Assembly: GCA_963796685.1 (NCBI GenBank)
Contig: CAWCMR010000025.1
Span: 544,001 to 608,000, forward strand
Direction of reading: 5' to 3'
Source of the DNA: an uncultured delta proteobacterium
Lineage (GTDB): Bacteria > Myxococcota_A > Polyangia > Fen-1088
DNA: 64,000 nt
The translations under genes were made by a program, and so were the position numbers. Shown in pieces: positions 40,518 through 61,556 of the stretch. How positions within the stretch are numbered: the first letter of the stretch is position 1; every line of letters starts with the position of its first letter. Under the pieces are notes generated by a model, which saw only the letters and a list, made by a program, of their open reading frames with translations, was not told where the DNA came from and made no database searches.

Positions 40518-40586
40518 CGGCCAGGCCCGGCCTGGTACACTCCCGGCCACACCTTGGAAACCATGAGCACGCGCATTCTCTGCCTC
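40518..40586 (+). repeat. imperfect direct repeat, copy 2, spanning the maturation protease start
   Basis: Matches 38492-38561. Confidence 0.7.
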
Positions 40587-41105
40587 GGCAACGAGCTCGT
40601 CCGGGACGATGGGGTCGGCATACGCATCGGGCAAATCCTGATGAAGCTGCGCTTGCCTGCCGACGTGCGCGTCGAGCTGGCTCCCCAGTTGGGCTTCGAT
40701 CTGCTCGAGGTCGTCGCCGGGGCCGAGCGCGTGGTGCTGGTGGATGCCATGGCCACGGGACGCGCGCCCGGAACCTGCGTCACCCTCGACGGCCGAGCCA
40801 TCGAGCATTACAGCGCCGGCGCCTCGGCCTCGCACAGCATCGGCATCGCCGAGCTGATGGATCTGGCGCACCGCCTGGCGCCGGCCCGCGCGGCTGCTTC
40901 CCTGCATTTCGTGGGCGTGGAAGGCATCGCGTTCGGCGAATACGGGACCGACCTGAGCCCCGAGGTCGAAGCGGCCATCCCCGAGGCGGTGGAAGCCGTT
41001 CTTCGGCTGGTTGGCGCGAACGCCGCGCTCCTGGCGGCCGGGAAAGCCGCCGCTCTGAGCAGCGAGGCGCTGCGACCCGGCATCCTCGGCGAGCCCGTTC
41101 CGTAG
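40563..41105 (+). CDS. hydrogenase maturation protease (HycI/HyaD family)
   Basis: LCLGNELVRDDGVG, VLVDA, SHSIG, GTDLSPEV. Confidence 0.9.
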   Translation: MSTRILCLGNELVRDDGVGIRIGQILMKLRLPADVRVELAPQLGFDLLEVVAGAERVVLVDAMATGRAPGTCVTLDGRAIEHYSAGASASHSIGIAELMDLAHRLAPARAAASLHFVGVEGIAFGEYGTDLSPEVEAAIPEAVEAVLRLVGANAALLAAGKAAALSSEALRPGILGEPVP

Positions 41106-43456: not shown

Positions 43457-43484
43457 TTGCGCACGCAGGGCTCGAGTTGGGTTT
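43457..43484 (+). promoter_or_regulatory. putative ECF promoter TTGCGCAC-N14-GGGTTT
   Basis: Identical boxes and spacing at 46396-46423. Confidence 0.55.
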
Positions 43485-43507
43485 ATCTGGGTAGCCATGC
43501 GGGAATC

Positions 43508-46389: not shown

Positions 46390-46395
46390 GAAAGA

Positions 46396-46423
46396 TTGCG
46401 CACAAGCGGCGGCGCTCGGGTTT
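46396..46423 (+). promoter_or_regulatory. putative ECF promoter TTGCGCAC-N14-GGGTTT, probably leaderless transcript
   Basis: Ends 7 nt before ATG 46431, with no RBS. Confidence 0.55.
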
Positions 46424-46430
46424 CTCAAGC

Positions 46431-47186
46431 ATGACGAAGACATCACCTACGACGCCGATCTCGACCAGAAACTGTCCTTTTCTGCCTGCGCTCGTGTCGG
46501 CGGCCATCGGCATATGGGGAGCCGGCTGCGGAAGCGGCGTCCTCAGCCAGGTGGACGATGACGATGCTGCACTGGGCGTTGATGGCGGCGCCATGGGCGG
46601 CAGCGGCGGTGTGGTCGGGACGGTCGACGCGGACAGCGTCGGCGGTGCCGGCGGCAGTGTTGGTGGTTCCTATGGTGGACCGAATTGCCCGTGCTCGCGG
46701 CGTCCCGGCGAGAACAACGCCTTCATGTGCCCACCTGGGACCGGCCAGGCCAGCACGACAGCCCTTGGTACCGACGGCGGAAACGCCAGTCTCGACGGCA
46801 CCCCTTCCACCGCTAGCGTCCCCGTCAGGCTCACCCTCTTGCCCACCGCTCTTGGACAGTCAGTTTCCGTCACCATCACCGAGACGACCACGCCACCGCC
46901 CGCGGGCTATGTGGACGAGTCGCCGATCTATTCCATTGCGATGCTGCCAGGGCTCACGCTTTCGACCCCCGCGAGGCTTGTCCTGCCCTACCAAAGTAAT
47001 CTCAGTCTCATCTCTAGCCAACTCGCCATCTATTTCTCTACCGACGGGACGACCTACACGCGCGTTCAAGACTCGTACGTCAATGCAGGCTTCTTACAGG
47101 GCTCCTTGACGAAATCCGGGTTCGTGTTCGCGGGCTACCCAAAAACCGCGGCCGACCTCGCCGCGTGTGGGGTGAGTGCGGAGTAG
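46431..47186 (+). CDS. lipoprotein with ZU5-like C-terminal domain
   Basis: GAGC lipobox; LGTDGG...LTLLPTAL...SPIY...TPARLVLPY pattern. Confidence 0.5.
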   Translation: MTKTSPTTPISTRNCPFLPALVSAAIGIWGAGCGSGVLSQVDDDDAALGVDGGAMGGSGGVVGTVDADSVGGAGGSVGGSYGGPNCPCSRRPGENNAFMCPPGTGQASTTALGTDGGNASLDGTPSTASVPVRLTLLPTALGQSVSVTITETTTPPPAGYVDESPIYSIAMLPGLTLSTPARLVLPYQSNLSLISSQLAIYFSTDGTTYTRVQDSYVNAGFLQGSLTKSGFVFAGYPKTAADLAACGVSAE

Positions 47187-47229
47187 TGTTCCCCCCCCCC
47201 GACGTTTGCCTTCCGCCACCAATCCGCGT

Positions 47230-47827
47230 CTAGGAGGCTGGTCTCTTCAAGAGGGCGAGCAGCTTCCGACCCTCGCAGCGGGGGTGTGCGGTTCGGACCA
47301 GTCCGGCCTGCTCGGCTGCGGCGATTTCGGTTTGGAACAGCTCGCGCGAGCAATGACCCGACGGCTCGATGAGCAGGAGTTGACCTCCCGGCTTCAAGCA
47401 CCGGGACAGCGTGGTCACGGTTGCCGCGGGGAATACCGTCTCGTGCACGACATGAATGGCCAACACGAGATCGCAACTTTCCCGCTGGTCATGAAGCCCC
47501 AAATCCTGATGGGTGCTCAGGCGCAGCTCGGCGCGATCGCGCAAACCGCGCTTTTCGAGACGTTTGTCCAGGCTTGCGAGCATCGACTTTTGCACCTCCA
47601 CGCACACGACCTTGCCAGTGGCACCGACGGCCTTCGCGACCGGCAGGGTAAAGAAGCCCAGGGCAGGCCCGAGCTTCGAGCACACGGTCGCCGGGTTTCA
47701 CCAGAGGCAAAACCAGCTTGTTTGGGCTCTCCGCGAGGCGCCGCACCGGACTGGCCAGAAGCAGCCCAATCCAATAAGGACAGGTGTGCGCGGGATGGGG
47801 CTCGCTCGAATTCGTTTGCTCGTTCAT
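47230..47827 (-). CDS. class I SAM-dependent methyltransferase, frameshift near 47680
   Basis: HTCPYWIG...VKPGDRVLE / LGPALGFFT...LKPGGQLLLIEP. Confidence 0.75.
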
Positions 47828-47913
47828 GGTCCCTCCTCGTTGCCCGATGGTTTGGCTCGGGCACAGCTGCTACTATGCCGGGAGCGGCTCGTTTCGACGA
47901 CTCGCCTTTCACC

Positions 47914-48615
47914 ATGAACGATTTTTCCCTGCATTTGCCGACGAAGTCGCGGCGCCAGGGCGCAGACGAGCGCTCCCGTGCTCGCGTTTCCAAGGCCACC
48001 TTGCGGCTGAAGGCACGCCGAAATCCGAGGCAAGAACGCTCCCGGCAGACCGTGGAAGCCATCGTGGAAGCCGCGGGACGGCTTCTGGTGGAACACGGTC
48101 GGGCTGCGGTCACCACCAACGCGGTCGCGCAGCGGGCGTGGGTCTCGATTGGCTCCGTCTATCAGTACTTCCCCAACAAGGACTCGATCTTCTCGGCGCT
48201 GCAGGAGCGCCACCGCGGTCAAGTGATGCCGCTCATTCGCCTTGCCTTGGCACGGCTCGAGGATCCCGCCGAGGATCTCGTCCTCGGAATCGTGTCGCTG
48301 ATGAAAGCCATGGCGGAATTGAACCGGGATGATCCAGGACGGATGCGTGCCTTGGACGAAGATCTACTCGAGCGGTCGTCGGCCACCGACATTCAGGCAT
48401 TCGCCGATGCCATCGCAGGCCTCCTGGCCGCGCGCACGGGCTGCTCCGAGGACAGCCTGCGCCCTACGGCTTGGCTCGCGTCCCTGACCCTCACTCACGT
48501 GGGACGAACCCTGGTCCATCACCCGCCGCCACTCCCCATGCAACCGATCCTCGATTCGCTGACCTCGATGTTGCGTGGTCTATTTTCCCCCGATCCCCTC
48601 CCGGCTGGCCGCTGA
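47914..48615 (+). CDS. TetR/AcrR family regulator
   Basis: PRQERSRQTVEAI...TTNAVAQRAWVSIGSVYQYFPNK; divergent from the methyltransferase. Confidence 0.85.
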   Translation: MNDFSLHLPTKSRRQGADERSRARVSKATLRLKARRNPRQERSRQTVEAIVEAAGRLLVEHGRAAVTTNAVAQRAWVSIGSVYQYFPNKDSIFSALQERHRGQVMPLIRLALARLEDPAEDLVLGIVSLMKAMAELNRDDPGRMRALDEDLLERSSATDIQAFADAIAGLLAARTGCSEDSLRPTAWLASLTLTHVGRTLVHHPPPLPMQPILDSLTSMLRGLFSPDPLPAGR

Positions 48616-48699
48616 ATTCAAGCTGAGAAGCGTGTTTGGCATCACGGCCTCGGGTCGGGCAGAAGATTTGTGTGGGTTCTGACGCCGGGGTGCGCACTG

Positions 48700-49060
48700 A
48701 CCTGGTTCATCCAGTACGGCACGGGCGCGGCCACGCCTGCGGGCAGCACGCGGCCCCACTCGCGGCCGTAGGGATAGGCATACGTCGTGCCGAGTGGGTG
48801 TTTGATGGATGGCCAGCCCCTCGTGCTCGATGCGCTCGCGGAACGATGGTGGCAATGACTCGAACGTCAGCAGGTCCACTTCGAGCCCGAGCGCCGTGCA
48901 CAAGGCGACCTCGATCGATGTCGAGGTCTGCCCGTCCACATTGACGAGCACGATGTCGACGTCGCTGCGCACCCCGAATACCCCCAGGCCAGCGAGCCGA
49001 TGAGCCATGCCCGACCTCCGGCGGGAAGTTGTCCACGCACCAGCGCCACGGCCAGGCCAT
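48700..49060 (-). pseudogene. minimal nucleotidyltransferase (MNT) remnant, possibly followed by a decayed partner
   Basis: AWLIGSLAWG / FGVRSDVDI...EVDLL...FRERIEHEG split across frames. Confidence 0.6.
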
Positions 49061-49130
49061 CGACTCGCGGTGCAAGACCCACTAAACTAGGACTCTCGGT
49101 TGCGTTCTCACAGCGCCCACGACAAATCAT

Positions 49131-49168
49131 CCATGAATTTTCTGCATGCCATGTCGTGTTTTCATGGT
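49131..49168. promoter_or_regulatory. inverted repeat CCATGAA...TTCATGG before the ATPase gene
   Basis: Seen directly; AT-richer patch. Confidence 0.3.
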
Positions 49169-49174
49169 ACATGA

Positions 49175-50341
49175 ATGGTCATGCTCGATCGAGCCGGGCA
49201 TCTTGGCGCCATCAAGAAACTGTTCCAGTCCCATTCCGTCGTGGCCATCCTCGGCCCGCGCCAGGTGGGCAAGACCACCTTGGCCAGGCGCTATGCCGAA
49301 ACCCTCCGATCCCGCGCGCACCACTTCGATCTGGAAGACGCAGACGATCTCGCCAGGCTTAGCGATGCCAAGCTGACCCTCGGACGGCTCCGTGGCTTGG
49401 TCGTCATCGATGAAATCCAGCGGCGGCCCGAGCTTTTCCCCACCTTGCGGGTGCTGGTGGACACCCCCAAAGCATCTTTGCGGTTTCTCGTGCTCGGCAG
49501 CGCTTCACCCGAGCTCCTCAAGCAATCCTCCGAAACCCTCGCCGGGCGCGTCGCCTACCACGAGCTTACCGGCTTTTCCCTCGAAGAGGTCGATCCTCGG
49601 CGCATGGATCGGCTCTGGCTGCGTGGTGGATTTCCCCGCTCCTTCTTGGCCAAATCCGATCCGGCCAGCCAGGACTGGCGCGCAGGCTTCGTCCGCACCT
49701 TCCTTGAACAAGACCTGCCCCAGCTTGGCCTGAATTTGCCGGCCCCTCAGCTGCGACGCTTTTGGACCATGGTCGCCCACTACCACGGCCAGATCTGGAA
49801 CGCCTCCGAGATTGCCGCATCCATGGGGATTTCCGATACGACGGCCCGTCGCTATTTGGATCTGCTTGCGTCCACGTTCATGGTGCGCCCGCTCCCTCCC
49901 TGGGCCGAAAACCTCGGCAAGCGCCAAGTAAAATCCCCGAAGATTTACTTCGCCGATAGCGGAATCCTGCACACCTTGCTTGGCTTGCGCACCATGGGCG
50001 ACCTAGAAACCAATCCCAAGCTCGGTGCCTCCTGGGAGGGTTTCCTCCTTGGCGAGGTCGTCTCGCGACTCGATGTCGACAAGGAGGAATGCTATTTCTG
50101 GGCAACCCACCAAGGCGCCGAGCTGGATCTACTGGTCGTGCGCGGACACCGACGCCTTGGCTTTGAATTCAAGCGGACCTCGTCGCCCACGATCACCAAG
50201 TCGATGCATATCGCCATGCAAGACCTGAAGCTGGATCAGCTGACGGTGATTCACGCGGGCGAGCACAGCTTCCCTCTCTCCAACGAAATCCGAGGCGTTT
50301 CTGCCCATCACCTGCTTACCGAGATCCGCCCCCTGCGCTGA
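49175..50341 (+). CDS. AAA+ ATPase with DUF4143 domain
   Basis: GPRQVGKTT, IDEIQ, LAGR, KSPKIYFADSG, ELDL...FEFK. Confidence 0.9.
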   Translation: MVMLDRAGHLGAIKKLFQSHSVVAILGPRQVGKTTLARRYAETLRSRAHHFDLEDADDLARLSDAKLTLGRLRGLVVIDEIQRRPELFPTLRVLVDTPKASLRFLVLGSASPELLKQSSETLAGRVAYHELTGFSLEEVDPRRMDRLWLRGGFPRSFLAKSDPASQDWRAGFVRTFLEQDLPQLGLNLPAPQLRRFWTMVAHYHGQIWNASEIAASMGISDTTARRYLDLLASTFMVRPLPPWAENLGKRQVKSPKIYFADSGILHTLLGLRTMGDLETNPKLGASWEGFLLGEVVSRLDVDKEECYFWATHQGAELDLLVVRGHRRLGFEFKRTSSPTITKSMHIAMQDLKLDQLTVIHAGEHSFPLSNEIRGVSAHHLLTEIRPLR

Positions 50342-50421
50342 GGTGGACGGGCAGGCTCGCGCACGTCCGCTTTGGAGAGTGCACCACGCGGTAGGGCCGC
50401 GACCGAGGCCAACGTTCCTCG

Positions 50422-52008
50422 CTACGGCGTGATCTGCGTGAAGTCCACCAGGTTACCGGTCATCATCAGCAGCGACAGCGCCGTCCATGATTTCTGGTAG
50501 TAGATGGTTCCGGCGTTGAGGTTCAAGGTGGCCACGGCGGCGTAGGCGGCGTCGAGGAATGCCTGGTACTTGGCATCGCTCATGGCGCCCACGCCCGCGG
50601 GACCGACGAACGAGGCCGCCTGGGTGCCGTTCACGGCACGATCGGGTTTCGGGGTTCCATTCAACTCGTAGCCATCAACGATGTTGGCCACGCCGACGCC
50701 AACGTAGAAGGACGTGATCTTGGCCAGGTAGCTCTTGGCGCGCGGCTCGCCGAAGAAGCAGTCGTCCTCGCCCACGCGGAAGGGCGTGCGCGTGGAGTCG
50801 TTCTGAAAATACATGGGCGCACCCGAGTACGGGGAGACGGGTGTGCCGGAGGAATCGCACCAGGCGGGCACGAGGCCGTTGTCGGCGTTGCCGCTCTGGG
50901 TGTTGAGGCTGCGCTCGAGGATGTCGTAGTTGCCCGCGATGACCTTGTTCCAATCGTCGACCTTGCCCGTCACCTGGCCGAAGACACGATAGTAGGCCGG
51001 CGCGAAGTACGACGGGTTGGTGACGTCGACGTTGCCCCACTGGTCGCCCGGCTTGAGCATGTCGTTGCGGGTCTGGTCGACCTCGAGGCTCCAGATGAGG
51101 CCAATGAGCTTCTTGGCATGGTTGAGATAGGTGTCGGACAGCGCCCCCTTCCCACCCCACTGCTTGTCGGCCATGACCAAGGCCCAGGCCATGTCCTCGT
51201 CGCCGTCGGTGGCGGCGCCCGTGCCGCCCGAGGTGACCTTGCCGTCGGGGCCGATCTCCCAGTTCATGAGGCCATTGCCGTCGAGATAGAGCTGCTCGTA
51301 GTTCCACAGGTCGTCGAACAACTTCTGGTCGTTCATGTACACGGCCAGGATCATCCCGTAGCCGATCCCCTCGGACACGGTCGAGCCGATGACCGTCCCC
51401 GAGTCGGGCTTCTTCACGCGCTCGAAGCCGCTGGCGCCGTCGGAGGTGACGGTCGCGTCCTTCCAAGCCTGGTAGGCCGCCTTCACCTTGTCGTTGTCGT
51501 AGGCCGTGGGATAGGTGCAGTACTGCCCCTTGTAGTTCTGCGGGAAGGGATAGGCGACGCCGGGTGAGCTGGTCGCGCCGCCGCTGCCCGTGGCCCCGCC
51601 CGTCGCGGTGAAGCTGCCGCCGGTCGCGGCATTGCCCCCGCTGCTCGTGGTTCCGCCGGTCATCAGGGCGCCGCCAGTGCCTGGGATCCCACCGGTCGTC
51701 ATGACGCCGCCGCTGCTGGTCGCGCCGCCAGCGGCCTTCGTTCCGCCCGTGCTCGGCACACCGCCCGATCCTATCGCCCCGCCGCTGCCCACGACGCCGC
51801 CCGAGGCGCTGCCACCACTACCCACCATGCCGCCGCTGCTCGCGATGCCGCCCGTGGCCGACGCCCCGCCATGACCGGTTGCCCCACCGGTGGCCACCGT
51901 CCCGCCGCTGCCCGAGGATTGGGTCGAACCTTTGGTCGTGCAGGCCGCGCCCACCTGGCATGCGAGCACGAGGGCAAGGACGAGAGATCCGCTGCTTGAA
52001 CGGGTCAT
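50422..52008 (-). CDS. GH8 glycoside hydrolase lipoprotein
   Basis: TVSEGIGYGM, AATDGDEDMAWAL, NPSYFAP, GLVPAWC; Gly-rich linker. Confidence 0.9.
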   Translation of the reverse strand: MTRSSSGSLVLALVLACQVGAACTTKGSTQSSGSGGTVATGGATGHGGASATGGIASSGGMVGSGGSASGGVVGSGGAIGSGGVPSTGGTKAAGGATSSGGVMTTGGIPGTGGALMTGGTTSSGGNAATGGSFTATGGATGSGGATSSPGVAYPFPQNYKGQYCTYPTAYDNDKVKAAYQAWKDATVTSDGASGFERVKKPDSGTVIGSTVSEGIGYGMILAVYMNDQKLFDDLWNYEQLYLDGNGLMNWEIGPDGKVTSGGTGAATDGDEDMAWALVMADKQWGGKGALSDTYLNHAKKLIGLIWSLEVDQTRNDMLKPGDQWGNVDVTNPSYFAPAYYRVFGQVTGKVDDWNKVIAGNYDILERSLNTQSGNADNGLVPAWCDSSGTPVSPYSGAPMYFQNDSTRTPFRVGEDDCFFGEPRAKSYLAKITSFYVGVGVANIVDGYELNGTPKPDRAVNGTQAASFVGPAGVGAMSDAKYQAFLDAAYAAVATLNLNAGTIYYQKSWTALSLLMMTGNLVDFTQITP

Positions 52009-52020
52009 CCTGAAAGTCTA

Positions 52021-53838
52021 TCACTCGCGCCGGTCGCCCGAGTCGTCTACTTCCGCGCCCGAGACGATGGCTGCCAGCTCGGCGATGGCGCGCGCGGCAG
52101 GGGCGGTCTCGGGCTCGCCCGGTCCCAAGGTGGCCATGCCCAACCCTTCGCCAGCGCTGTCGAACAGGCGACAAGTCAGCACCATGCTGTTGCGGTCGGT
52201 GACCCGTACCGAATCCACCTCGGCCAGCGGCAGCAGCATACGCGCCCGCGAAACCATCTCGCCGGCCACCGCCGCGAACGCAGCCAAGCCTTCCTGCACC
52301 GCGGACTCGCCCGCGCCGGCGATGAGGAAGCCCTGAGCGTCGGCCAGTACGGCCGTGCGCGGACCGCCTGGACCCACCAGCGAGTGCAGGTTGGTCTCCA
52401 TGTCCGACACCGGGTTTTGCGCCAGCAGCTCGCCGCTGACGACCGGCATCTCGCGGCTGGCGTACAAGCCGCTGGCATAGAGCTGCGCCTCCAGATCCTT
52501 TTCCCGGCGGCGCAAGTACGCGACTTCCTCGACCAGCGACGCGGCCTCCGCGGCCTGCGCGCGCAAGGAGACCAGCTCGTTGCGATCCTGCAGCAGCTCT
52601 TGCAGCCGACGCGCCATCAGCTCGGCGTCCAGACGCAGCTGCTTGTGCGCGATGGTCAAACGCTCGAGCTCGCCGCTCGCTTCCTGGTGCTGGCGCAGCT
52701 CGGCCGCCTCATCGCGCAACCTGCGATTTTCCTCGAGCACATCGCCAAGCTCCACCAGCTTGGCTTGCGCCGCCGCGAGCTCGACCTTGACATCTTTGAC
52801 CTCCCTGGCCTCGTCCCCACGCCCCGCCTGCCACTCGGCCTCGCGCACGAGCTCCGCTTGTTGCGCGCGCAGCCCGGCGTTTTCCTGCACCAGGCGATCC
52901 AGGGTGGCCAGCCGGGTTTCGGCCGCGCGCAGCGCCTCGTCCGCAATCCTGCCCTGTTCGCGTTCGTGCGCGACGGCCTCCTCCAGTGCGCGCAGGCGTA
53001 TTGCAAGCTCCGACTTCTCGGCCAGCCCGTCCTGCCCCGCCGCCTCGACACGCTCGAGCTGCTCGACGAGCCGTTGCTTCTCGGCCTGCGCGCTTGCCTG
53101 CGTCGACCGCAACGCCTCGTCGGCCGCGACCACCCTTCCCTGCCACGAAGCCTCGACCTCCGCGATACGGCGAAGCGCCTCGCGCTCGCGCCCCTCGGCC
53201 GCCAAGAGCGCCTGCTGCAGGCCATCGCGTTCCGCCTCCCATAGCACGTGCTCCTCGACGAGACGCGCCTGCTCGGCCGCCAACCTTTCGGACTCGGCGC
53301 GCCGCTGCTCCAACTCCTCGACCAGGCGTGCTCGCTCGGCCTCGTGTCGGCCGACCTCGGCGCGTAGCTGCCCGAGCTCCTCGCGCTGGACCTGGTCCTG
53401 GCGCTTCTGCTCGGTCTGGGTGGCTTGCAGCTGCGCGCCCCAGGCCTCGGCCTGCTTCTCCTCGCGCTCGAACGCCTCGCGATTCCGATCCTCGGCGATG
53501 CGCAGGCGCTCGGCCAGGGTCCGCTCCCTGGCGGACAGTCGTTCGATCTCGGCGCGCGCGCCGTCACGCTCGCGCTCGGCCAGCGCGCACTTCTCTTCCT
53601 CCAGCTTTCGTGTGCCGGCCTCGGCCTTGTGCTCGGCCGTGGCGTCGGCAAGCGCGACCTCGCTACTCTTCTGTTCCAGGCGCAGGCGTTCGAGCTCGCC
53701 TTCCAGGTCCTCGTGCCGACGGACCTCCTTGCCGAGATCGACATCGCCGCCACGCGGCCGGCGCAGCAGGAACCCGGCCAGGAAGAAGGCCAGCGCGGCG
53801 ACCAGGCTTGCGGCGATGAGGTAGACGAGAAGCGACAT
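52021..53838 (-). CDS. N-terminal TM, long coiled coil and C-terminal roadblock/LC7-like domain
   Basis: TM MSLLVYLIAASLVAALAFFLAGF; E/R/A/Q-rich heptads; RTAVLADAQGFLIA...LAAFAA. Confidence 0.7.
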   Translation of the reverse strand: MSLLVYLIAASLVAALAFFLAGFLLRRPRGGDVDLGKEVRRHEDLEGELERLRLEQKSSEVALADATAEHKAEAGTRKLEEEKCALAERERDGARAEIERLSARERTLAERLRIAEDRNREAFEREEKQAEAWGAQLQATQTEQKRQDQVQREELGQLRAEVGRHEAERARLVEELEQRRAESERLAAEQARLVEEHVLWEAERDGLQQALLAAEGREREALRRIAEVEASWQGRVVAADEALRSTQASAQAEKQRLVEQLERVEAAGQDGLAEKSELAIRLRALEEAVAHEREQGRIADEALRAAETRLATLDRLVQENAGLRAQQAELVREAEWQAGRGDEAREVKDVKVELAAAQAKLVELGDVLEENRRLRDEAAELRQHQEASGELERLTIAHKQLRLDAELMARRLQELLQDRNELVSLRAQAAEAASLVEEVAYLRRREKDLEAQLYASGLYASREMPVVSGELLAQNPVSDMETNLHSLVGPGGPRTAVLADAQGFLIAGAGESAVQEGLAAFAAVAGEMVSRARMLLPLAEVDSVRVTDRNSMVLTCRLFDSAGEGLGMATLGPGEPETAPAARAIAELAAIVSGAEVDDSGDRRE

Positions 53839-53846
53839 GAAGAACC

Positions 53847-54561
53847 TCAGTGAATCGCGATCTCGACCCTTCGGTTGTGCGCCTGGGCCGCTATCGAATC
53901 AGCCGAGCGGTCACCCGCGAGCGGCCGCGTCGAGCCGAATCCTTGGATGTCCATGCGCGCGGGATCGACCCCGTGCCCTTCAAGCCAGCGAGCACACCTG
54001 CGCGCGCGTTCCAGCGACAGCGCGCGATTCGAGCTCTTCCGGTCCGACGCTGTCGCTGTGCCCGCTTATCACGACCCGCCGGCTGGGTTGCTCGGCGAGG
54101 GTCGCGGCAACCTGGGCAAGGACCTCGCGTGCCGGTGACGACAACCAACTCGTGTTTCGCGCAAAGAGCAGGTTGGGAAACCCTGGGGGGGTGGGCTCGG
54201 CCGACGGCGAGGATTCGCCGGTTGGCGACACCGCCTCGGCGAGTGGCGGCGCGGTCTTGGCGGGCGGTGGTGCGACTGGCGCGAGAACCCTCGCCGCCGC
54301 AGGTACGGGCTCAGCCGTCCGCGGCGGCGCGGGCGGCAACCCCGGGCTCGGCCTTTCCGCCGAGACCGGTACGCGCAAGGCCGGTCTCGAGCGCGTGGCA
54401 CCGCTCAAATAGCGGGGCAGCAGCACGAGGTCGATGGCGGCGAGGTCGCCCACCCCGAGCAGCAGCAGTCCCGCCGCCAGCGCGTGGCGCACGAACGTCG
54501 ACGACTGGGCTGTCGCACCACCGGCGCCCTCGGACCGATGCGCGTACCCCTGCGCTGTCAT
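53847..54561 (-). CDS. OmpA/MotB-like peptidoglycan-binding membrane protein; extra base near 54030
   Basis: TM, Pro-rich linker, LLFARN, ISGHSD. After correction: NRALSLERA...QGFGSTRP...HNRRVEIAIH*. Confidence 0.8.
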
Positions 54562-54569
54562 GATCGCCT

Positions 54570-54950
54570 CTAGGCGGAGGCGGCGATGGCCTTGCCCAGC
54601 TCCACGCAGCGACGCTTGACCTCGATGAACACCAGGCCCAGCTTCGCGTCCTTGCTGGTCAGCACCACCAGCACCGAATCGGCGCCGACCGCGTTGAGGA
54701 CCACATAGCCCTTCTCGCTGCGCACGTAGACCTGCTCCATGGTCGAGGCCATGAGCTCGGAGGAGATGCGCTCGCCGACGCCCAGCATGGCCGCCGCCAT
54801 GCCCGAGACCAGCTCCTCGTCGACCTCGGCGGGCAAGACCGAGGCCACGATGAAACCATCGATGCTTACCACCGCGGCGCCGATGATGTCAGGCGAGGCC
54901 CCACGAAGGCCGCGCAAGATGTCCTGCATTTTTTCCGTACGAGAAGCCAT
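54570..54950 (-). CDS. roadblock/LC7 (MglB-like) protein
   Basis: PDIIGAAVVSIDGFIVAS...VSGMAAAML...KLGLVF. Confidence 0.88.
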   Translation of the reverse strand: MASRTEKMQDILRGLRGASPDIIGAAVVSIDGFIVASVLPAEVDEELVSGMAAAMLGVGERISSELMASTMEQVYVRSEKGYVVLNAVGADSVLVVLTSKDAKLGLVFIEVKRRCVELGKAIAASA

Positions 54951-54973
54951 GGTCCATTCCTCCTAGGTTGCGA

Positions 54974-55693
54974 TTAGTTGCGAATTTGGAATTTCATGGT
55001 GCATTGGCCGACCGTGCCGAGCGTGGCGACGGTGTAGCTCTTGCCCGAAAAGGCGCTCATGAGCCCGGCGAAGTACTCATGAAACAGCTCGCACAAATTG
55101 GCGCTGCCGGCAATCTCTCCTTGCGCTGCGACCACTTTGTGCAGGGCGCAGCTTGGAAAGGTCAGGGACACGGTGGTCCCGTCCGCCTCGATCTTGGCGT
55201 CGAAGTCGAAGGCGTGAACGAAACGGCGGCGCAGGCCCGCCAGCAGGTCCTCCATGCGCGAGGACTCGTACATCTCGGGCATGTGGGCGGCGGCCAGGTT
55301 GCCCGCCGAGCGCCCCACGGCCCGTTGTCCGCGCCCCATGATCTCTTTGAGCGCGTCGGCCAAGGCCTTGAGCCGCACGTGCGTGTCCTTGAGCGCCTCG
55401 TCGTAGTCGGCCTGGCCGAGTTGCTCGGTCGCGGGGATCTGCTGCAGAAAGCGCGACACCAGCGCGGCATGGGTTTCCATGCGGTGAAACGGCCGCTGCA
55501 ACTTCGCGTCGGTCACGGTCAGACAGCGCGACGGGCACAGGTACACGCAAGACGTGCAGCCGATGCAGTCCTCTTGGCGGACGACCTTGGCCAGCTTCTT
55601 CGACGTTTCCTCCTCGAACACCTTGGTCGGGCAGATTTCCACGCACAGGCCGCAGTCGCGGCAGCCGGATTCTTCGATGTGAACCGTGGGCAC
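54974..55693 (-). CDS. 2x[4Fe-4S] ferredoxin fused to a V4R/MetOD1-like domain
   Basis: CRDCGLCVEICP and CIGCTSCVYLCP; C-terminal FPSC...NLC..FHEYFAG...QC. Confidence 0.75.
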   Translation of the reverse strand: MPTVHIEESGCRDCGLCVEICPTKVFEEETSKKLAKVVRQEDCIGCTSCVYLCPSRCLTVTDAKLQRPFHRMETHAALVSRFLQQIPATEQLGQADYDEALKDTHVRLKALADALKEIMGRGQRAVGRSAGNLAAAHMPEMYESSRMEDLLAGLRRRFVHAFDFDAKIEADGTTVSLTFPSCALHKVVAAQGEIAGSANLCELFHEYFAGLMSAFSGKSYTVATLGTVGQCTMKFQIRN

Positions 55694-55696
55694 AGG

Positions 55697-57100
55697 TCAC
55701 CTCCTTGCCGTGCGAATGGTTTGCCCGCCCTGCCACAGGTTGATTTCCATGGGCATTTGCCCCACGCGATGGGTGGAGCAAGACAGGCACGGGTCGTAAC
55801 AGCGAATCGCGAATTCCACGCCGTCCAGCAAATCGCTGTCGCTCTTGTCGAGCAATTGCGTGGCCGCGTTCTTGATGGTGGTGTTGATGCTGGCGATATT
55901 GTGCTGGGTCGCCACCACGAAATTGGCCGCTTCGATGATGGCGTTTGCGTCCACGTGGTAGTCGTGGATCAGCACCCCGCGCGGAGCCTCGACGTGGGCC
56001 ACGGCGTGGCGGTTGATGGCGCCGGGGGCGGTGCGCACCTCGGGCGAGCGAATGGCCTCGTCGGAGAGCATGGCCACGGCCTTTTCCGCGCAGTGGAGAA
56101 TTTCCACCAGGCGCGCCCAATGCCCGGCCACGATCTGGCTCGACGGGTCGCCGCACGTCGCTTTGAATTCCGCCAGGGCGGCATCGGCCAACGGCGTGCC
56201 CGTGGCCTCGGCGCAATTGAGCCGGGCCAGCGGGCCGACGCGGTAGGGGTGCGTGGCCCCGCTTGCGTCCTTGAGCAAGACCTGCTTGCCGTAGCTGTGC
56301 GGCAGCGCCTCCTCGACGAGATGGGTGGCGTAGTCGGCGCCTACGAAATCCAGGGCCACGCTGCCGTCGGGACGGCGCACGCGCAGCTTGCCGTCGTACA
56401 GATCCAGGTTCTTGCCCTGCAGCGTTCCCATGTCGCTGGTCGCGAGCGGCAAGCGGGTCAGGAGCTTCGGATCCTTGAGCAGGGCCTTCTTGCCGGCATC
56501 GAGGACCACCTTGGCCAGCTCCAGCGCCTCGGCGGCCAGCAGCTTCAAGGTGTCATGATTTTGCGACGTGAGCGCGAAGGACATACCACCTGCCACCGCG
56601 GTCACCGGATGCGTGCCCCGGCCGCCGACGATCTCCACCATGGTCTGGCCGATGCTGCGCAGGCGCAGGGCCTTCTTGGCGAGCTCGGGCGCGGCCTCGA
56701 GCAGACCCACGAGATTGCGTTTTTGCACCGGGCTCGACTGCCCGAGAAACAGATCGGGACCGGCCAGGGCGAAGAAATGGATGGCGTGCGAGTGGATCAT
56801 GCTGCCGCAGTTGAGCAGTTGGCGCAGCAGCAAGGCGGCCCTGGGGGGCGGCGCCGAGAACATGACGTCCAAGCACTTGGCGGACACCAGGTGGTGGGCA
56901 TGCGGGCAGGTGCCGCAGATGCGCGTGGTCAGGGTGGGCATGAGCTCGGCCTGCATGCCCTGCACGAAGCGCTCGAAGCCGCGAAACTCGAGCACGTGCA
57001 GCGTGGCCGCGCCGACCTTGCCGTCGTCGCCGATTTCGATGTGCACCTTGGCGTGACCCTCGATGCGCGTGACGGGATTGATGGTGAGTTGGCGGCTCAT
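55697..57100 (-). CDS. [NiFe]-hydrogenase large subunit (group 3, MvhA/HoxH-like)
   Basis: VTRIEGH, RGFE, L1 RICGTC, EAPRG, L2 YDPCLSCSTH and a 23-aa C-terminal extension. Confidence 0.95.
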   Translation of the reverse strand: MSRQLTINPVTRIEGHAKVHIEIGDDGKVGAATLHVLEFRGFERFVQGMQAELMPTLTTRICGTCPHAHHLVSAKCLDVMFSAPPPRAALLLRQLLNCGSMIHSHAIHFFALAGPDLFLGQSSPVQKRNLVGLLEAAPELAKKALRLRSIGQTMVEIVGGRGTHPVTAVAGGMSFALTSQNHDTLKLLAAEALELAKVVLDAGKKALLKDPKLLTRLPLATSDMGTLQGKNLDLYDGKLRVRRPDGSVALDFVGADYATHLVEEALPHSYGKQVLLKDASGATHPYRVGPLARLNCAEATGTPLADAALAEFKATCGDPSSQIVAGHWARLVEILHCAEKAVAMLSDEAIRSPEVRTAPGAINRHAVAHVEAPRGVLIHDYHVDANAIIEAANFVVATQHNIASINTTIKNAATQLLDKSDSDLLDGVEFAIRCYDPCLSCSTHRVGQMPMEINLWQGGQTIRTARR

Positions 57101-58032
57101 CGGGCGGCTCCTTGCTGCGCGATCCAGCGCCGCAGAAGAAAGGTCGGCTTCTGACGAAACACCGGCGAGGCCATGGCGTAGGCGTAATAGGTCTTGGCCT
57201 GCTTCTCGATCTCGGCGGTGATGGCGGGCTTGGGAATCTTGGTCATCATGGACATGCGCGTGGCGATCTCGGTGCGGATGTCGCGATTCGGCTCGAGCAC
57301 GATGGCCTCCGACGGCCCCGTGCAGCCCGAGCACGGCATGCCACGGGTCGGGCAGGCGCCGCGGCAGCGATCGAGCGTGGCGCTGCCCATGCACAGGATC
57401 CCCTGCGAGAGAAAGCACGTGTCCTGCTCTATCGGGCCCTCGTGCACCCGGCGCAGGGCCGACACCTCGGTGTGTTTCATGTGGCGGTCGCAATGGAAGC
57501 ACACGTTGTGCTCGCCGAACTCGGGTGGCTTGCCGTGCAGCACCGATTTGAGCGCCTCGAAGACGTAGAAGGCGTGCGGTGGACAACCTGGCAGATAGAG
57601 ATCCACCGGAATCACGGCGTCCACCGGCAACACGCCTTCCGCGAGCAGCTTGGGCACCCCCTGGTCGGGCACGAAATGGGTCGAGGTGGTCGGGTTCTTC
57701 ACGAAGGCCGACTCGGCCAGCTCGCTTTGCGCGTGGGCGTAGCCCGAGCCCTGCGGTCCGCCGTAGACGCCGCACGTGCCGTAGGCCAGGATGGCGGCGC
57801 AGCTTGCCCGCATCTTCTTCGCGCACTCCACGTCGTGGTCGGTGCGCAGGGCTCCGGTGATGATGCCGAGCGCGGCCTTGGGGTAGTCCTTCACGTCCAT
57901 CAAGATGGGCAGGCGAACGATGTCGATCTCTTCCAGCACGGCCAGCAGGCGCTCGTGCAGATCGACGATGGAAAGCTCGCAACCCGAGCAACCGGAAAGC
58001 CATTCGAACGAAACCGTGACCTTGGCCATCAT
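57097..58032 (-). CDS. [NiFe]-hydrogenase small subunit (MvhG-like, three FeS clusters, no Tat signal)
   Basis: WLSGCSGCE, GTC, PGCPP, VCFHC, CFL...CMG, CRGACP...CSGCTG. Confidence 0.92.
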   Translation of the reverse strand: MMAKVTVSFEWLSGCSGCELSIVDLHERLLAVLEEIDIVRLPILMDVKDYPKAALGIITGALRTDHDVECAKKMRASCAAILAYGTCGVYGGPQGSGYAHAQSELAESAFVKNPTTSTHFVPDQGVPKLLAEGVLPVDAVIPVDLYLPGCPPHAFYVFEALKSVLHGKPPEFGEHNVCFHCDRHMKHTEVSALRRVHEGPIEQDTCFLSQGILCMGSATLDRCRGACPTRGMPCSGCTGPSEAIVLEPNRDIRTEIATRMSMMTKIPKPAITAEIEKQAKTYYAYAMASPVFRQKPTFLLRRWIAQQGAAR

Positions 58033-58049
58033 TCCCCTCCTGGTTTCTC

Positions 58050-58535
58050 CTAGCCCTGCAACATGAGCTCTTTGAGACAGGCGTTCTCCCCGGCGTGCAG
58101 GATTTCCAGCTCGGCGCGCTTGCCGGTGATCTTCTGCACGTACCCGCAGAACAGGCCGTGGTTCATCATGCACAGCGATTGCTTCTGCTCGTGGCCATAG
58201 CGGAACAGGGCGCAGCGAACCATGCAGTTCCGGAATACCAGCTTGACCGCCTGCTTGCCATCTTTCTCGTAGAGGAAGCTCTTTTCTGCGGCCGGCTTCC
58301 ACGCTTCGAAGGGCCACTCGATGCCGTTGGCCCTGAGCGCCTCGCCCACCTTGCCGAGAGCGACCAGGATGTCGCTTTCCTTTTCGGCGATGCTGCTCTT
58401 GAGACCCACGGTCTTGCCCGACCGAAACGTCACGGTCTCGGCCCCGCGGCCGAGAACCTGTTCTAGACCATGCGACAGCGAGGCCATGACCACGAGCAGG
58501 CCTTGCAGTTCATCCCTTGTTTCAGACGGACCCAT
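58050..58535 (-). CDS. V4R/MetOD1-like small-ligand or metal-binding protein
   Basis: FRNCMVR...SLCMMNHGLFCG...AGENAC Cys pattern. Confidence 0.6.
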   Translation of the reverse strand: MGPSETRDELQGLLVVMASLSHGLEQVLGRGAETVTFRSGKTVGLKSSIAEKESDILVALGKVGEALRANGIEWPFEAWKPAAEKSFLYEKDGKQAVKLVFRNCMVRCALFRYGHEQKQSLCMMNHGLFCGYVQKITGKRAELEILHAGENACLKELMLQG

Positions 58536-58599
58536 ACTGTCCTCCGATCTAGGTAACGCGCCAGACGACACCCGAGAAGACACGCCCAAGCGTGCCGAT

Positions 58600-59604
58600 C
58601 TAGCGCGTCGACTTGCTCTCTAGTTTTTTCAGGTTGAGATCCAGGGAACGGTTATCGGGATCGAGCTCTTTGGCGGCGAGCCAGCACTGGCGCGCCTCCT
58701 CCACCTTGCCGGCCCGCAGAGCCGCGAAGCCCTTGTCCACCAGCGACGCCGCCGCGCCGACCGGCCGAGGGGCCTTGCGAGACTCGGAGGGAACCAACGC
58801 ATTCATCGCCCGGCGCTCGCTGGGCGCGCCGTCGCCACCGGGCGAGGAGATCTTCTCGAATACGGAATTCTCGACGCGAATGGCGGGAAAGGATCCGGTC
58901 TGGCGCGGCGAGGAATTGGCGCGCTCGTCGAGCGTCCGCACGGCCTCCATCAAGGCGAACTGCCAATTGCCGTGAATGTTCGGCTCGACGTCGTTGGGTA
59001 GGGGCGTGGTGCGAAAGACGCCGTCCTGGGCGTCCAGAATGGAGCACAGCGCTTCGTGCCCCACGAGCGGGCCCCACGAGGCGTGGAAGAGCTTGCCCTC
59101 CTTCACCATGACCGAGCCGGCCTCGCCGTGAGCGGTGATACGAAGCGCTGCGGTCCTTTGGGCTAGACAAAGCATTTGAATGAGGTCTGCTGCGGAAAGG
59201 GCCGAGAAGCACCCGGACAAGCGATGTATGCAATCGAGCGCTTCGTTGACGATCTTTAACACTTCTTTTGGCTCACATGGCTTTGGCAGAAGACGCAAGC
59301 AGCCAAGACCAGAGACGCGTTGCTGTAGCTGACGGACGTCGTCGTTGGTTTGCACCACGAACAAGGTCTCGGGAAACTCGATAGCGCCCCAGCAGACCAG
59401 ATCCACACCACCGGCGCTGGGCAGATCGGCATCCGTGATCAGGACATCGATCCCGACATCGCGCATGACATTACGTGCCACATCGGCCGAGGCGGCGAGC
59501 ATGACGTCGAAATTCTCGCCGCCCTCATAAAGAACGCGGTGGAGCGCAAGGGATGCCTCCTTGTCTCCGTCGACGATCAAGACCTTCGGGCGACGTCTCC
59601 CCAT
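58600..59604 (-). CDS. response regulator with DUF4388/PATAN domain and C-terminal TPR-like helix pair
   Basis: KVLIVD, LITD, LPKP; LSAADLIQML...RTAALRI...EGKLFHA...GHEAL; ARQCW...LDPDN. Confidence 0.85.
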   Translation of the reverse strand: MGRRRPKVLIVDGDKEASLALHRVLYEGGENFDVMLAASADVARNVMRDVGIDVLITDADLPSAGGVDLVCWGAIEFPETLFVVQTNDDVRQLQQRVSGLGCLRLLPKPCEPKEVLKIVNEALDCIHRLSGCFSALSAADLIQMLCLAQRTAALRITAHGEAGSVMVKEGKLFHASWGPLVGHEALCSILDAQDGVFRTTPLPNDVEPNIHGNWQFALMEAVRTLDERANSSPRQTGSFPAIRVENSVFEKISSPGGDGAPSERRAMNALVPSESRKAPRPVGAAASLVDKGFAALRAGKVEEARQCWLAAKELDPDNRSLDLNLKKLESKSTR

Positions 59605-59833
59605 CTGCCTCCGGCTATATCGATCTTCTGGGCCGCAAACTGTACTTCTAGGGCCGCAAACAGCGCTTCGCTTGCGGCTTTTCAGAACGGCGGCTCCGAT
59701 ATTACAGCCACCTTGCTACCTTCGCTGGCCCGGTCTCCGAACATCAACGAATACGGAAGAACGATGCCAGACCGGACGAGGCGTCATTTTGCGCCCAAGG
59801 CCCGCCCGGGATCCAGCAAATTCGCGCCGGGAT

Positions 59834-61436
59834 CTACATCGGCGAGATCGACGTGTAGTCGAGGTAATTGGCCGTCATCATGAGCAGCGAAAGCACCATC
59901 CACGAATCGTCGTAGTAGGTGCCGCCCACCAGCGCCTTGCCTGTCACGAGCACCCCGTAGGCGTCGTTGACGAAGGTCTGGTAGCTGGAGTTGCTCATGG
60001 CGCCGACGCCGGCAGGACCGACGAACGCCGAGGACTGAATCTGCGCGTTTGCACCAGTCTGGTACTGGGCGTGGGCCGTCCCGTTCAGGTCGTAGCCGTC
60101 GACGATCTTGGTGGCGCCGCCAACCGACGTCCCGCTGAAGAAGCTGCTGGTCTTGGCCACGTAGGCCTGCGCCCGCGAGTCGCCGGTCCAGCAGTAGTCG
60201 AGCCCGATGCGGAACGGGGTTCTGCACGAGTCGTACTGGTAGTTCGTCGGCGACGCCCCGCCCGTGGCTCCGAAGGCCCCGCCATTCGGCGCGCCGTTGG
60301 TGTCGCACCAGGCCGGCACAAGCCCATTGTTGGCGTTGCCGCTCGACGAGTTTAGCGATTTGGCCAGAACGTCGTACATGGCGTCCGTGAGCGCCTTCCA
60401 GCCGCTCGCGTTCGCGGTGTCGACCTTGGCGAAGAGCTTGTAGTAGGCGGGAGCGAAGTACGAGAGATTGATGGGGGGCACAGACGTGGTCGGCCAGGGG
60501 GACAGGTACTTGCCCGAATTGACCTCTTTGTTCCAGAATCTTGCCGATGGTCTCTTGGGCCCAATCGATATAGGTCCTGGTCGAGGAGCCTTTGCCGCCC
60601 CATTGCTTGTCGGCCATGACCATGGCGAAGGCCATATCCTCGTCGGCGTCCGAGGCCGGCCCCGCGCCTGACGGATTCGAGCCCACGTCCGAGCCGTCGG
60701 CCTTGATGTACCAGTTCATGAGGTAGGTCTGGGTATCGAGATGCGCCTGCTCGTACTTCCACAGATCGTCGAAGAGAGACTGATCATCCATGTACACCGC
60801 CAGGATCATCCCGTAGCCGATGCCCTCGGACACCGTCGAGTTCGGCTCCAGGCCGGGCTCGTTTGGCCGCTTCACGCGGCGGAAGCCATTGGCCCCGTCC
60901 GAGGTCACGGTGTCGTTCTTCCACTGCGCGTACATCGCCTGCACGTCCTCGTTGCGGTAGAGCGCGGGGTAGATGCAGTTGCTGTTCTCCCGGTTCTGAG
61001 GAAAGGGGAAATTGGTGGTGCTCGTATGCACGGTGGGACCGCGCGATGGCGCCGGGGGAGGCGCATCGGCGGTGTCGACAGCCGCGTCGGGGATCGTGCT
61101 GGTTCCGCCCGCGCCACCCGCACCGCCAAAGGCCGTCGCTCCCCCGGTACCCGCGGAGCCGCCACCGCCGCCCTCCGACTTGGTTCCACCCGTTCCCCCG
61201 CTTCCCCCCGAGGCGGTGGCTCCACCCCCGCCCGCGCTTCCGCCCGCGGCCGAGCTTCCACCCGTCGACGCGTTTCCACCCGCTCCGCCCTGCCCACCCG
61301 CGCTCGATCCGCCGGAGCCACCGGTGCCGGGCGGGGTCCGTGGGCTCTCCGTGGGCCTACATGCCGCGATTCCGCAAAACGTGACGAGAGCTGCTGTCCA
61401 GACTGGAGCCTGCAGGATTCGACGAGGAAACATCAT
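59834..61436 (-). CDS. GH8 glycoside hydrolase lipoprotein; frameshifts near 60480-60535
   Basis: IAAC lipobox; TVSEGIGYGM, SDADEDMAFA, NLSYFAP, GLVPAWC; paralog of 50422..52008. Confidence 0.85.
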
Positions 61437-61556
61437 GTCGTTCAATCCCAAGTGCAATCCCGAGTGGGGTGGGTCATTTCCTGGTTGTAAGAACACCTAA
61501 CCCTGCCTGATCGCGCATGGAAAATCTAGAGGGGCAACGCCCGTGGCCCGGGACCT

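Follow-up and report, generated by a model that had tools for sequence, protein, structure and literature searches.

What is the function of a [NiFe]-hydrogenase whose genes lie among genes for V4R-fold and roadblock proteins, with no redox partner encoded beside them? The question is raised by a 64,000-nucleotide stretch of DNA (the window) from an uncultured member of the Polyangia, taken from an assembly of 7.3 Mb in 26 contigs, in which eight co-oriented genes, all on the minus strand, occupy positions 52021-59604. They encode a response regulator (p1), a small V4R/Bet3-fold protein (p2), the hydrogenase small and large subunits (HydS and HydL), a ferredoxin fused to a second V4R/Bet3-fold domain (p5), a roadblock protein (p6), an OmpA-like protein (p7) and a coiled-coil protein that ends in a roadblock domain (p8). 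The original prediction, made from the sequence, had read the locus as a candidate H2-sensing system for polarity or motility. We find that the constant partners of this hydrogenase and its V4R-linked relatives are two V4R/Bet3-fold proteins, and not MvhD/Hdr, HoxFU or FrhB. We favour, with a probability of about 0.55, the reading that the locus represents an undescribed lineage of group-3-derived sensory hydrogenases, which would respond to H2 or to an H2-poised redox state and act through lineage-specific signalling outputs.

The hydrogenase and the proteins encoded with it

Proteins of the window were scanned against Pfam with the curated cut-offs, which are given in brackets after the scores. 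HydL matched NiFeSe_Hases (PF00374) with 98.3 bits (25.8) and carries the two [NiFe] large-subunit motifs RxCGxCxxxH and DPCxxCxxH in the forms RICGTCPHAH and DPCLSCSTH; RICGTCPH and DPCLSCSTH were invariant across 10 HydL homologues of 59-77% identity. HydS matched Oxidored_q6 with 83.6 bits and MvhG (5odc_E) with 217 bits, the cysteines of all three iron-sulphur (Fe-S) clusters being matched. The best PDB match for HydL was MvhA (5odc_F, 352 bits), followed by the bifurcating NiFe-HydABCSL enzyme and HoxH, and structures of groups 1 and 2 aligned only to the N-terminal ~110 residues (about 2-111). HydL continues for 23 residues after the last His of DPCxxCxxH, and the HycI-type protease encoded at 40554-41105 is 77% identical to the protease found directly after p8 in congeners (loci L017, L023, L029 and L053); its gene is co-directional with the operon in L035 and L040. 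On these motifs, the cluster cysteines and the cognate HycI, HydSL is predicted to be an intact enzyme.

The claim that the hydrogenase is group 3-derived was supported by the PDB match, by NCBIfam and by the tree described below. The best NCBIfam models were VhuA for HydL (332.6 bits) and VhuG for HydS (190.1 bits), which did not reach their cut-offs of 800 and 450. The enzyme does not fall within group 3c itself, given that there is no MvhD/Hdr link, the NCBIfam cut-offs were missed and the clade is a separate one. HoxFU- or HydBG-type partner genes, which accompany groups 3d and 3b, were not found in the window by Pfam, and neither was FlpD, which was also absent from the rest of the contig; the prediction that the window encodes no redox partner therefore holds. 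A histidine kinase, the partner in group 2b, was not found in the operon by Pfam.

Relatives gave the same picture. With four FlpD queries, tblastn found FlpD-like matches within 6 kb of HydL in 0 of 39 V4R-linked loci and in 10 comparator loci; HoxF/HoxU queries matched no V4R-linked locus, and did match 10 comparator loci and the second hydrogenase of this genome, on contig 15. The nearest outgroup large subunits (40-46% identity) have an FlpD-Fer4/HdrA-like fusion directly upstream of the small subunit in loci L044, L047, L051 and L058, where FlpD was confirmed by Pfam, or HoxF plus HoxU in L052. The original prediction had staked itself on the closest homologues not sitting with Hdr or diaphorase genes, and by the queries used no locus of the clade carries MvhD/Hdr or HoxFU, which occurred only in outgroups of at most 46% identity. 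The enzyme thus resembles MvhAGD of group 3c in its best sequence matches, its cytoplasmic type, the three [4Fe-4S]-type cysteine sets of the small subunit and the C-terminal tail with its protease, but MvhD is replaced here by two V4R-fold subunits, and none of the 39 V4R-linked loci has MvhD/Hdr.

A quick IQ-TREE phylogeny of 65 large subunits, built without reference sets, placed the 35 bacterial V4R-linked HydL sequences in one clade (support 100 in the SH-like approximate likelihood ratio test, SH-aLRT), in which three Desulfobacterota sequences were sister to the rest. The MvhD-linked and HoxFU-linked sequences fell outside this clade, and the tree did not settle which group is its sister. 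Four archaeal V4R-linked sequences formed a clade of their own, the position of which was likewise not fixed by the tree. Forcing all 39 V4R-linked sequences together cost 7.3 log-likelihood units and was not rejected by the approximately unbiased (AU) test (p 0.139), a result that is merely permissive because the group was defined after the contexts had been seen. A separate observation concerns HydL residue 44 (56954-56956): with five long-branch rows left out, Met was found there in at least 95% of the V4R clade's 35 bacterial rows, and Arg in 21/21 MvhD- or HoxFU-linked comparator rows as well as in the four archaeal rows.

Since p2 and p8 had no Pfam match and the C-terminal domain of p5 remained below threshold, their predicted assignments as V4R and roadblock proteins were put to other tests, and stood at the level of fold but not as Pfam membership. 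For p2, Pfam gave no match at E≤0.01, and the V4R profile (PF02830) gave none even at E≤5 on p2 or on the p5 C-terminal domain; p5 matched several Fer4 dicluster families and, weakly, ATC_hydrolase (21-22 bits; cut-off 28.1). Profile alignment with hhalign found p2 homologous to the p5 C-terminal domain (probability 89%, E 2e-6), and both carry the motif C-x17/18-C-x3-H-x25/26-C, of which two cysteines were invariant and the third nearly so among 37 diverse members of the p2 family. Five of ten p2-family relatives matched V4R at E 1e-4 to 1e-2, all under the cut-off of 31; one p2 relative is a Fer4 fusion like p5, and the source label of one reads 'predicted hydrocarbon binding protein'. The family is small, with 101 representatives at E≤1e-3 among 1.84 billion proteins. 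An AlphaFold model of p5 (confidence score, pLDDT, 76.9) had 43 Foldseek matches at E≤1e-3, and the search retrieved Bet3/TRAPPC3, Trs33 (template modelling (TM) score 0.63, target-normalised), PoxR, MopR, Thorarchaeota TRAPPC3, H-NOX and BcsD. From the model and the Cys site, p2 and p5 are thus predicted to share an alpha/beta fold of the V4R/Bet3-TRAPPC3/H-NOX-like type with a putative zinc site.

The V4R fold is described, in the available part of PMC10933270, as a dimeric two-layer alpha/beta fold with a ligand cavity and a Cys-based zinc site that tethers the sheet to a helix, and the known cavities hold small hydrophobic molecules. Because a zinc site is described there for the V4R/TRAPPC3 fold, the idea that the Cys3His sites of p2 and p5 are extra Fe-S clusters was set aside in favour of a putative structural zinc site. 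Another relative observed was P0143, a protein of 722 aa with a p2-type V4R domain at its C-terminus (567-720) and a kinase-like region (TCAD9 37.6 bits, cut-off 40; weak APH), which may be a fused version of the kinase and V4R gene pair of Polyangiaceae-type loci.

Two of the signalling proteins belong to the roadblock group. p6 matched Robl_LC7 (PF03259) with 50.9 bits (23). p8 gave no Pfam match at E≤0.01; read from the sequence, it has a hydrophobic N-terminus and a long middle part rich in E, R, A and L. Its last 140 residues were modelled by AlphaFold with pLDDT 88.5 and a predicted TM score of 0.80 in the roadblock topology alpha-beta-beta-alpha-beta-beta-beta(-alpha), and Foldseek retrieved MglB (3t1s, E 1.5e-6), a Thorarchaeota roadblock protein (TM score 0.75), Lokiarchaeota roadblocks and Ragulator subunits. 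Robl_LC7 reached 15.5 bits on p8, below the cut-off of 23, and 10 of 16 orthologues matched at E≤1 without any of them reaching that cut-off; when the p8 C-terminus was aligned to p6 with hhalign, the match was weak (probability 6%). The modelled fold and these sub-threshold matches are the grounds on which p8 is assigned to the roadblock proteins.

p1 is a response regulator of the PATAN type, with Response_reg at 37.4 bits (30.2), DUF4388 at 59.5 bits (25), TPR_2 below its cut-off at 22.4 (27) and the receiver (REC) motifs VLIVDGD, LITD and LLPKP; no cognate kinase was identified. p7 matched OmpA with 27.2 bits, equal to the cut-off (27.2), over profile positions 1-58 of 98 in the first frame. 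The remainder of the domain (NRALSLERA...NRRVEIAIH) lies in another frame with a stop at 53847, so that no single frame holds a complete OmpA domain. The orthologues of p7 are intact proteins of 214-234 aa and align in frame -2 and then, from ~54029, in frame -3. The predicted OmpA/MotB-like gene is therefore right as to family, but is not intact: a single-base frameshift lies near 54028-54030, reflecting either a sequencing error or a pseudogene. The single transmembrane helix of p7 (54400-54480) and the orthologues in L014, L017 and L023 keep an acidic residue (GDLAAID, GDLTAIA, LDLAAID), which we take to recall the conserved Asp of MotB-type stator proteins; no MotA-like partner of p7 was seen.

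The presence and coordinates of all eight co-oriented genes were confirmed by the open reading frames and Pfam (Table 1). The gaps read off the sequence from p1 to p8 are ~64, 17, 11, 3, 23, 8 and 8 nucleotides. The predicted gaps of about 64 and about 23 nucleotides are thus found, and the predicted 4-bp overlap arises only if HydL starts 5 codons earlier, as its 467-aa homologues suggest.

Table 1. Genes of the hydrogenase operon and the HycI gene assigned to it, with positions in the window
Product	Position	Strand	Basis
p1, response regulator	58600..59604	-	Pfam REC + DUF4388 (PATAN), TPR-like C-terminal tail
p2, small V4R/Bet3-fold protein (predicted)	58050..58535	-	Motif C-x17-C-x3-H-x26-C; homology to p5 C-terminal domain
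HydS, [NiFe] small subunit, MvhG-like	57097..58032	-	Oxidored_q6; ligands for three Fe-S clusters
HydL, [NiFe] large subunit, group 3, nearest 3c	55697..57085	-	NiFeSe_Hases; 23-residue C-terminal tail
p5, 2x[4Fe-4S] ferredoxin + V4R/Bet3-fold domain (predicted)	54974..55693	-	Fer4 families; C182, C201, H205, C231
p6, Roadblock/LC7 (MglB-like)	54570..54950	-	Robl_LC7 above cut-off
p7, transmembrane helix + Pro-rich linker + OmpA-like domain, frameshifted	53847..54561	-	OmpA in first frame
p8, transmembrane helix + ~450-residue coiled coil + MglB-like roadblock domain	52021..53838	-	Sequence reading + AlphaFold/Foldseek
HycI-type maturation protease	40554..41105	+	PF01750 48.8 bits; assigned to HydSL

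Conservation and changing neighbours in three lineages

Of 12 congeners, 11 had a HydL orthologue of 77-97% identity; among the 28 relatives searched beyond the genus, 6 had any HydL match, the best at ~40% identity. A scan of species-representative genomes yielded 65 loci, and the closest large subunits were labelled Polyangia by their sources. Counts for the Polyangia-type loci use those with HydL of at least 50% identity and enough flank. p5 was found in 35/35 of them, p2 in 34/35 (the exception is L077, a fragment at a contig end that was binned as Bacteroidales), p6 in 34/35 (missing in L043) and the p8 roadblock domain in 24/25 (missing in L032). All were colinear in the order V4R, HydS, HydL, Fd-V4R, Roadblock, down to 55% HydL identity, so the original prediction, which depended on this order recurring in other genomes, passed that check. 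The most conserved product of the operon was p6, with 80-98% identity where HydL has 58-87%. HycI follows p8 on the same strand in Polyangiaceae-type loci, which places Roadblock and p8 inside the hydrogenase operon.

The gene upstream of p2 varied: it encodes a REC-DUF4388 protein in 14/33 loci and a Ser/Thr kinase in another 14/33, and the TPR-like C-terminal tail of p1 was shared by 6/14 of the upstream kinases and by two truncated open reading frames. p7 was found only in closer relatives. p1 and p7 are accessories of part of the clade and lie outside the core. As a side observation, locus L045, in a bin titled 'uncultured Actinomycetota bacterium', holds a full Polyangia-type cluster with several apparent frameshifts and is probably mis-binned or error-rich.

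A different set of neighbours was found in Desulfobacterota-type genomes, 3 of 351 of which had two matches to the p2-family profile 3.1 kb apart. The gene order there is CheW, V4R, HydS, HydL, ferredoxin, V4R, HycI, MCP (methyl-accepting chemotaxis protein), with gaps of 0-3 nucleotides within the CheW...MCP operon of L104; CheW was not found in L105. The ferredoxin (84 aa) and the second V4R protein are separate genes, in contrast to the p5 fusion of Polyangia-type loci, and hhalign matched this second V4R protein to the p5 C-terminal domain at 99% and to p2 at 97%. The MCP consists of HAMP_2 and MCPsignal domains only and has no N-terminal membrane segment, that is, it is soluble.

Metagenomes were scanned with a closer alignment subset as profile; among 300 relatives the best 80 loci were examined, and their neighbours were scored with CheW, MCP, Roadblock, p1, kinase and p8 C-terminal queries plus a few Pfam checks. 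Where the flank sufficed, HydL was present in 46/46 loci, ferredoxin with the second V4R in 41/41 and HycI in 40/40. An MCP follows in 25/39 and CheW precedes in 31/68. Four of the 14 loci without MCP had a roadblock match. In L162 (2836-4059) and L176 (12790-14076) REC, DUF4388 and Robl_LC7 are joined in single proteins, all three domains above their cut-offs, and the fusion protein of L162 adjoins an NtrC-type regulator and a PAS/GAF histidine kinase; one member of their cluster carries the name 'response regulator [Desulfopila sp.]'. L171 and L172 gave the same two tblastn matches as L162/L176, and in L182 and L183 a roadblock gene lies directly upstream of p2.

The third lineage is archaeal. 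A p2 relative was found in 4 of 96 genomes of the class Archaeoglobi (L071, L072, L082 and L083), each of which has a colinear run of genes for a 124-aa protein, the p2 relative, HydS and HydL; hhalign matched the first of these proteins to the second V4R protein of Desulfobacterota at 95%. A Roadblock gene lies beside V4R-V4R-HydS-HydL in all four genomes, in two different arrangements: in two it shares their strand and lies 3.4 kb downstream, flanked by the genes for an archaeal MinD and for a DUF2226 protein that matches DUF4388 below threshold, and in the other two it is divergent, ~0.5 kb upstream. In the two archaeal genomes checked it was the sole Robl_LC7 gene of the genome. The archaeal large subunits, of 390-405 aa, have no residues beyond the His of DPCxxCxxH, and a HycI-like gene was not found in these loci. 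The operon of L071 and L072 was seen to continue with four or five small proteins of no family, a transmembrane/coiled-coil protein, MinD, Roadblock and the DUF2226 protein; the 173-aa transmembrane protein of L072 was considered as a roadblock relative and dropped (hhalign ~1%).

A V4R-like gene can also precede a roadblock gene where no hydrogenase is nearby. In L087 (G380:C254) a distant V4R-like gene is followed by Roadblock at 1501-2307, with no hydrogenase detected in the 2.4-kb locus, which suggests that V4R-roadblock pairs exist on their own.

Sensory, catalytic and other readings

We read the locus as a sensor with interchangeable outputs because the HydSL-V4R core is constant, an acceptor module is missing, and the neighbours vary by lineage among chemotaxis, roadblock, PATAN, kinase and MinD proteins. 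The predicted H2-sensing role is partly supported: as regards a sensory function, it is strengthened independently, from other lineages, by the CheW/MCP flanks, the REC-DUF4388-Roadblock fusions and the Roadblock link in Archaeoglobi.

Starting from gene content, folds, conservation, the clade and its contexts, we infer electron flow into p5, heterodimerisation of the V4R proteins, a V4R-roadblock contact and the nature of the output, as follows. H2 would be split at the intact Ni-Fe site and the electrons passed through the three HydS clusters to the pair of [4Fe-4S] clusters in the ferredoxin part of p5. With no metabolic acceptor encoded, the redox state of the p5 clusters would track the level of H2. 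That state may alter the p2/p5 V4R pair, probably a zinc-stabilised heterodimer with ligand cavities, and the change would be passed on to whichever signalling partner the lineage has. In Polyangia the partners would be the MglB-like roadblock pair of p6 and p8, the REC-PATAN-TPR regulator p1 and p7 as a peptidoglycan-binding anchor, p8 presumably being membrane-anchored and holding its roadblock domain on the long coiled coil; in the Geobacter type they would be CheW and the soluble chemoreceptor. The output in this Polyangia genome is probably the control of surface-motility polarity, which is suggested by the MglB-like folds, the REC-PATAN protein and the title of a preprint, according to which PATAN response regulators reportedly interact with the type IV pilus motor.

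Several points weigh against a sensory role. Bacterial members resemble catalytic enzymes in keeping the C-terminal tail, the dedicated protease and the three-cluster relay. Given its small-molecule cavities, the V4R pair could hold a substrate instead of acting as a transducer. FlpD/MvhD domains are encoded at five other places of the genome, none on this contig, and one of them could serve in trans. In 10 of the 14 metagenome loci without MCP, no query protein and no Roadblock was found within the 8-kb flanks, the neighbours in one such locus (L168) being HSP90 and YaaA. Finally, much of the clade lacks p1 and p7, and the p7 of this genome is frameshifted.

The strongest alternative, which we hold to be possible but distinctly less probable, is that the enzyme is catalytic and represents a new subtype of cytoplasmic hydrogenase. 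Electrons would then leave through the ferredoxin, and the V4R pair would bind their acceptor (a quinone, or a small molecule of hydrophobic or aromatic character) or dock another enzyme; the roadblock pair and p8 would only position the hydrogenase at the membrane, and the signalling genes would regulate it or take redox input only loosely. The intact active site with relay, tail and protease suits this alternative, as do the ten loci just mentioned, which are compact V4R-HydS-HydL-Fd-V4R-HycI clusters without recognised signalling neighbours, and the binding of phenols or palmitate by V4R-fold relatives (Foldseek titles; available part of PMC10933270). A mere lead in the same direction is that language-model neighbours of a stored p2 relative include clusters with RdxA_C (rubredoxin-associated) in 23-24% of members. 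What speaks for the sensory reading over this one is that no flavin, NAD(P) or Hdr acceptor module occurs in any locus examined, that the tight embedding between CheW and a soluble MCP without a sensor part (MCP in 25/39) is hard to explain for a catalytic enzyme, that signalling partners recur in three different forms in two domains of life, and that conservation is higher in the roadblock protein than in the hydrogenase.

It is improbable that the V4R and roadblock proteins help to assemble or mature the hydrogenase, by metal delivery or by regulation of a maturation NTPase, instead of being partners of the mature enzyme. In favour of such a role, their genes separate the structural genes from that of the protease, regulation of NTPases is a function of roadblock proteins (PDB titles 'MglA in complex with its GAP MglB'), a MinD-type ATPase stands beside Roadblock in two archaeal loci and the V4R proteins have a Cys3His putative metal site. 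But the archaeal ATPase is a bona fide MinD (TIGR01969, 373 bits; cut-off 201.75), and its interpretation as an ATPase of the HypB type was rejected; the hyp genes are elsewhere, HypD occurring once in the genome, on contig 15 beside the second hydrogenase of HoxFU type, and would serve both enzymes; Desulfobacterota-type loci swap roadblock for CheW/MCP, which have no maturation role; and the Cys site fits the structural zinc site of V4R/TRAPPC3 folds in the available part of PMC10933270. That the hydrogenase and signalling genes are neighbours by chance or rearrangement and functionally unlinked, as an ~11-kb insertion, the paralogous GH8 flanks, the p7 frameshift and the restriction of p1 and p7 to part of the clade might hint, is close to refuted by order and adjacency kept in 34-35/35 loci down to 55% HydL identity, by the position of Roadblock between structural genes and protease, and by independent linkage in Archaeoglobi and Desulfopila-type loci.

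A sensory hydrogenase of this descent would differ from the known classes. The characterised H2 sensors are [NiFe] group 2b enzymes; the available part of the HydDB description defines 2b as histidine-kinase-linked and 2c as diguanylate-cyclase-linked, treats 2c and [FeFe] group C as putative sensors, the MCP-linked [FeFe] group C2 being termed 'chemotactic (putative)', and holds group 3 to be purely cofactor-coupled, with no sensory class in it (PMC5037454). In the literature searched we found no [NiFe] group 3 hydrogenase linked to roadblock, V4R, DUF4388 or CheW/MCP, and supplementary trees of the HydDB paper or the 2024 Cell paper could hold the clade unlabelled. Groups 3f and 3g, hybrids with [FeFe] enzymes in the available part of PMC11216029, are distinct from the V4R-linked clade, as is group 3e, proposed, in the accessible text, for Anaerolineae without regular partners.

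The proposed principle is that of HoxBC/HoxJ (group 2b) and of the putative group 2c: a signalling partner would read the redox state of the clusters in an acceptor-less Ni-Fe enzyme. Regulatory hydrogenases are not known to carry a C-terminal extension, and the archaeal branch resembles group 2b in ending at the DPCxxCxxH histidine with no protease gene in the locus. The V4R-linked enzymes nevertheless belong to another lineage, would have a V4R pair in place of the PAS/kinase transducer and, in bacteria, keep tail and protease; their outputs would be MCP/CheW, roadblock/PATAN or a Ser/Thr kinase. Like [FeFe] group C2, they are tied genetically to MCPs, the Geobacter-type members lying between CheW and MCP, but the superfamily is unrelated, and separate V4R proteins stand here against the fused PAS domain given for [FeFe] group C enzymes in the available part of PMC11216029.

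The roadblock side of the operon recalls MglA/MglB and PATAN regulators, with Robl_LC7 in p6, a p8 C-terminus that superposes on MglB in the model and REC-DUF4388 in p1. It differs in that no MglA-type GTPase gene was found among the neighbours shared by 5 or more of 16 loci (the genome itself was not searched for MglA), and in that a membrane-anchored coiled-coil roadblock protein and a link to hydrogenase are not described in the literature searched. TRAPP and Ragulator likewise bring together a Bet3 fold, as in the p5 model, and a roadblock fold, as in the p8 C-terminus, and the V4R-like and roadblock gene pair without hydrogenase (L087) extends the likeness; the resemblance is one of fold, known here from genes and models, with remote sequence similarity and no GTPase identified.

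More speculatively, and with some doubt, the V4R-linked group-3 enzymes may be true H2 sensors for hydrogenotaxis, movement up or down an H2 gradient, with one and the same core acting through CheW/MCP in the flagellated Geobacter type, through roadblock, PATAN and Ser/Thr-kinase proteins in gliding Polyangia and through roadblock/MinD in Archaeoglobi, and the pairing of Bet3-fold and roadblock dimers may be a prokaryotic forerunner, at work in H2 signalling, of the eukaryotic TRAPP/Ragulator platforms. H2 transfer between species structures communities in sediment and soil, and if the sensory reading is true, the locus offers a molecular candidate for H2-directed movement in anaerobes there. 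A group-3-derived sensor with V4R-fold transducers would then be a further functional class of hydrogenases. To our knowledge, the prokaryotic ligands and roles of roadblock/PATAN modules and free-standing V4R proteins are mostly unknown, and the sensor would supply the first concrete input for them. If the enzyme is catalytic, the family would still define a subtype of hydrogenases whose electron-output module is new. With its compact operon of ~6 kb, the Geobacter-type version makes the sensory reading directly testable.

Surroundings of the operon

A scan for promoters and terminators was uninformative: it gave 0 promoter-like sites and 7 terminator-like ones (4.9 expected), of which none lay between genes on the coding strand. 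As HycI stands directly after p8 in congeners, ~11 kb appears to have been inserted here between the two genes. This stretch (41100-52020) was seen to encode an FG-GAP repeat protein, a caspase-domain protein (Peptidase_C14), a TetR-domain protein, an AAA_14/DUF4143 ATPase and a GH8 glycosidase (50422-52008). By Pfam, GH8 genes thus stand on both sides of the operon, the second at 59784-61496. The GH8 gene at 50422-52008 was ~65% identical to the copies of the 59784-61496 gene in two relatives (blastn against their loci).

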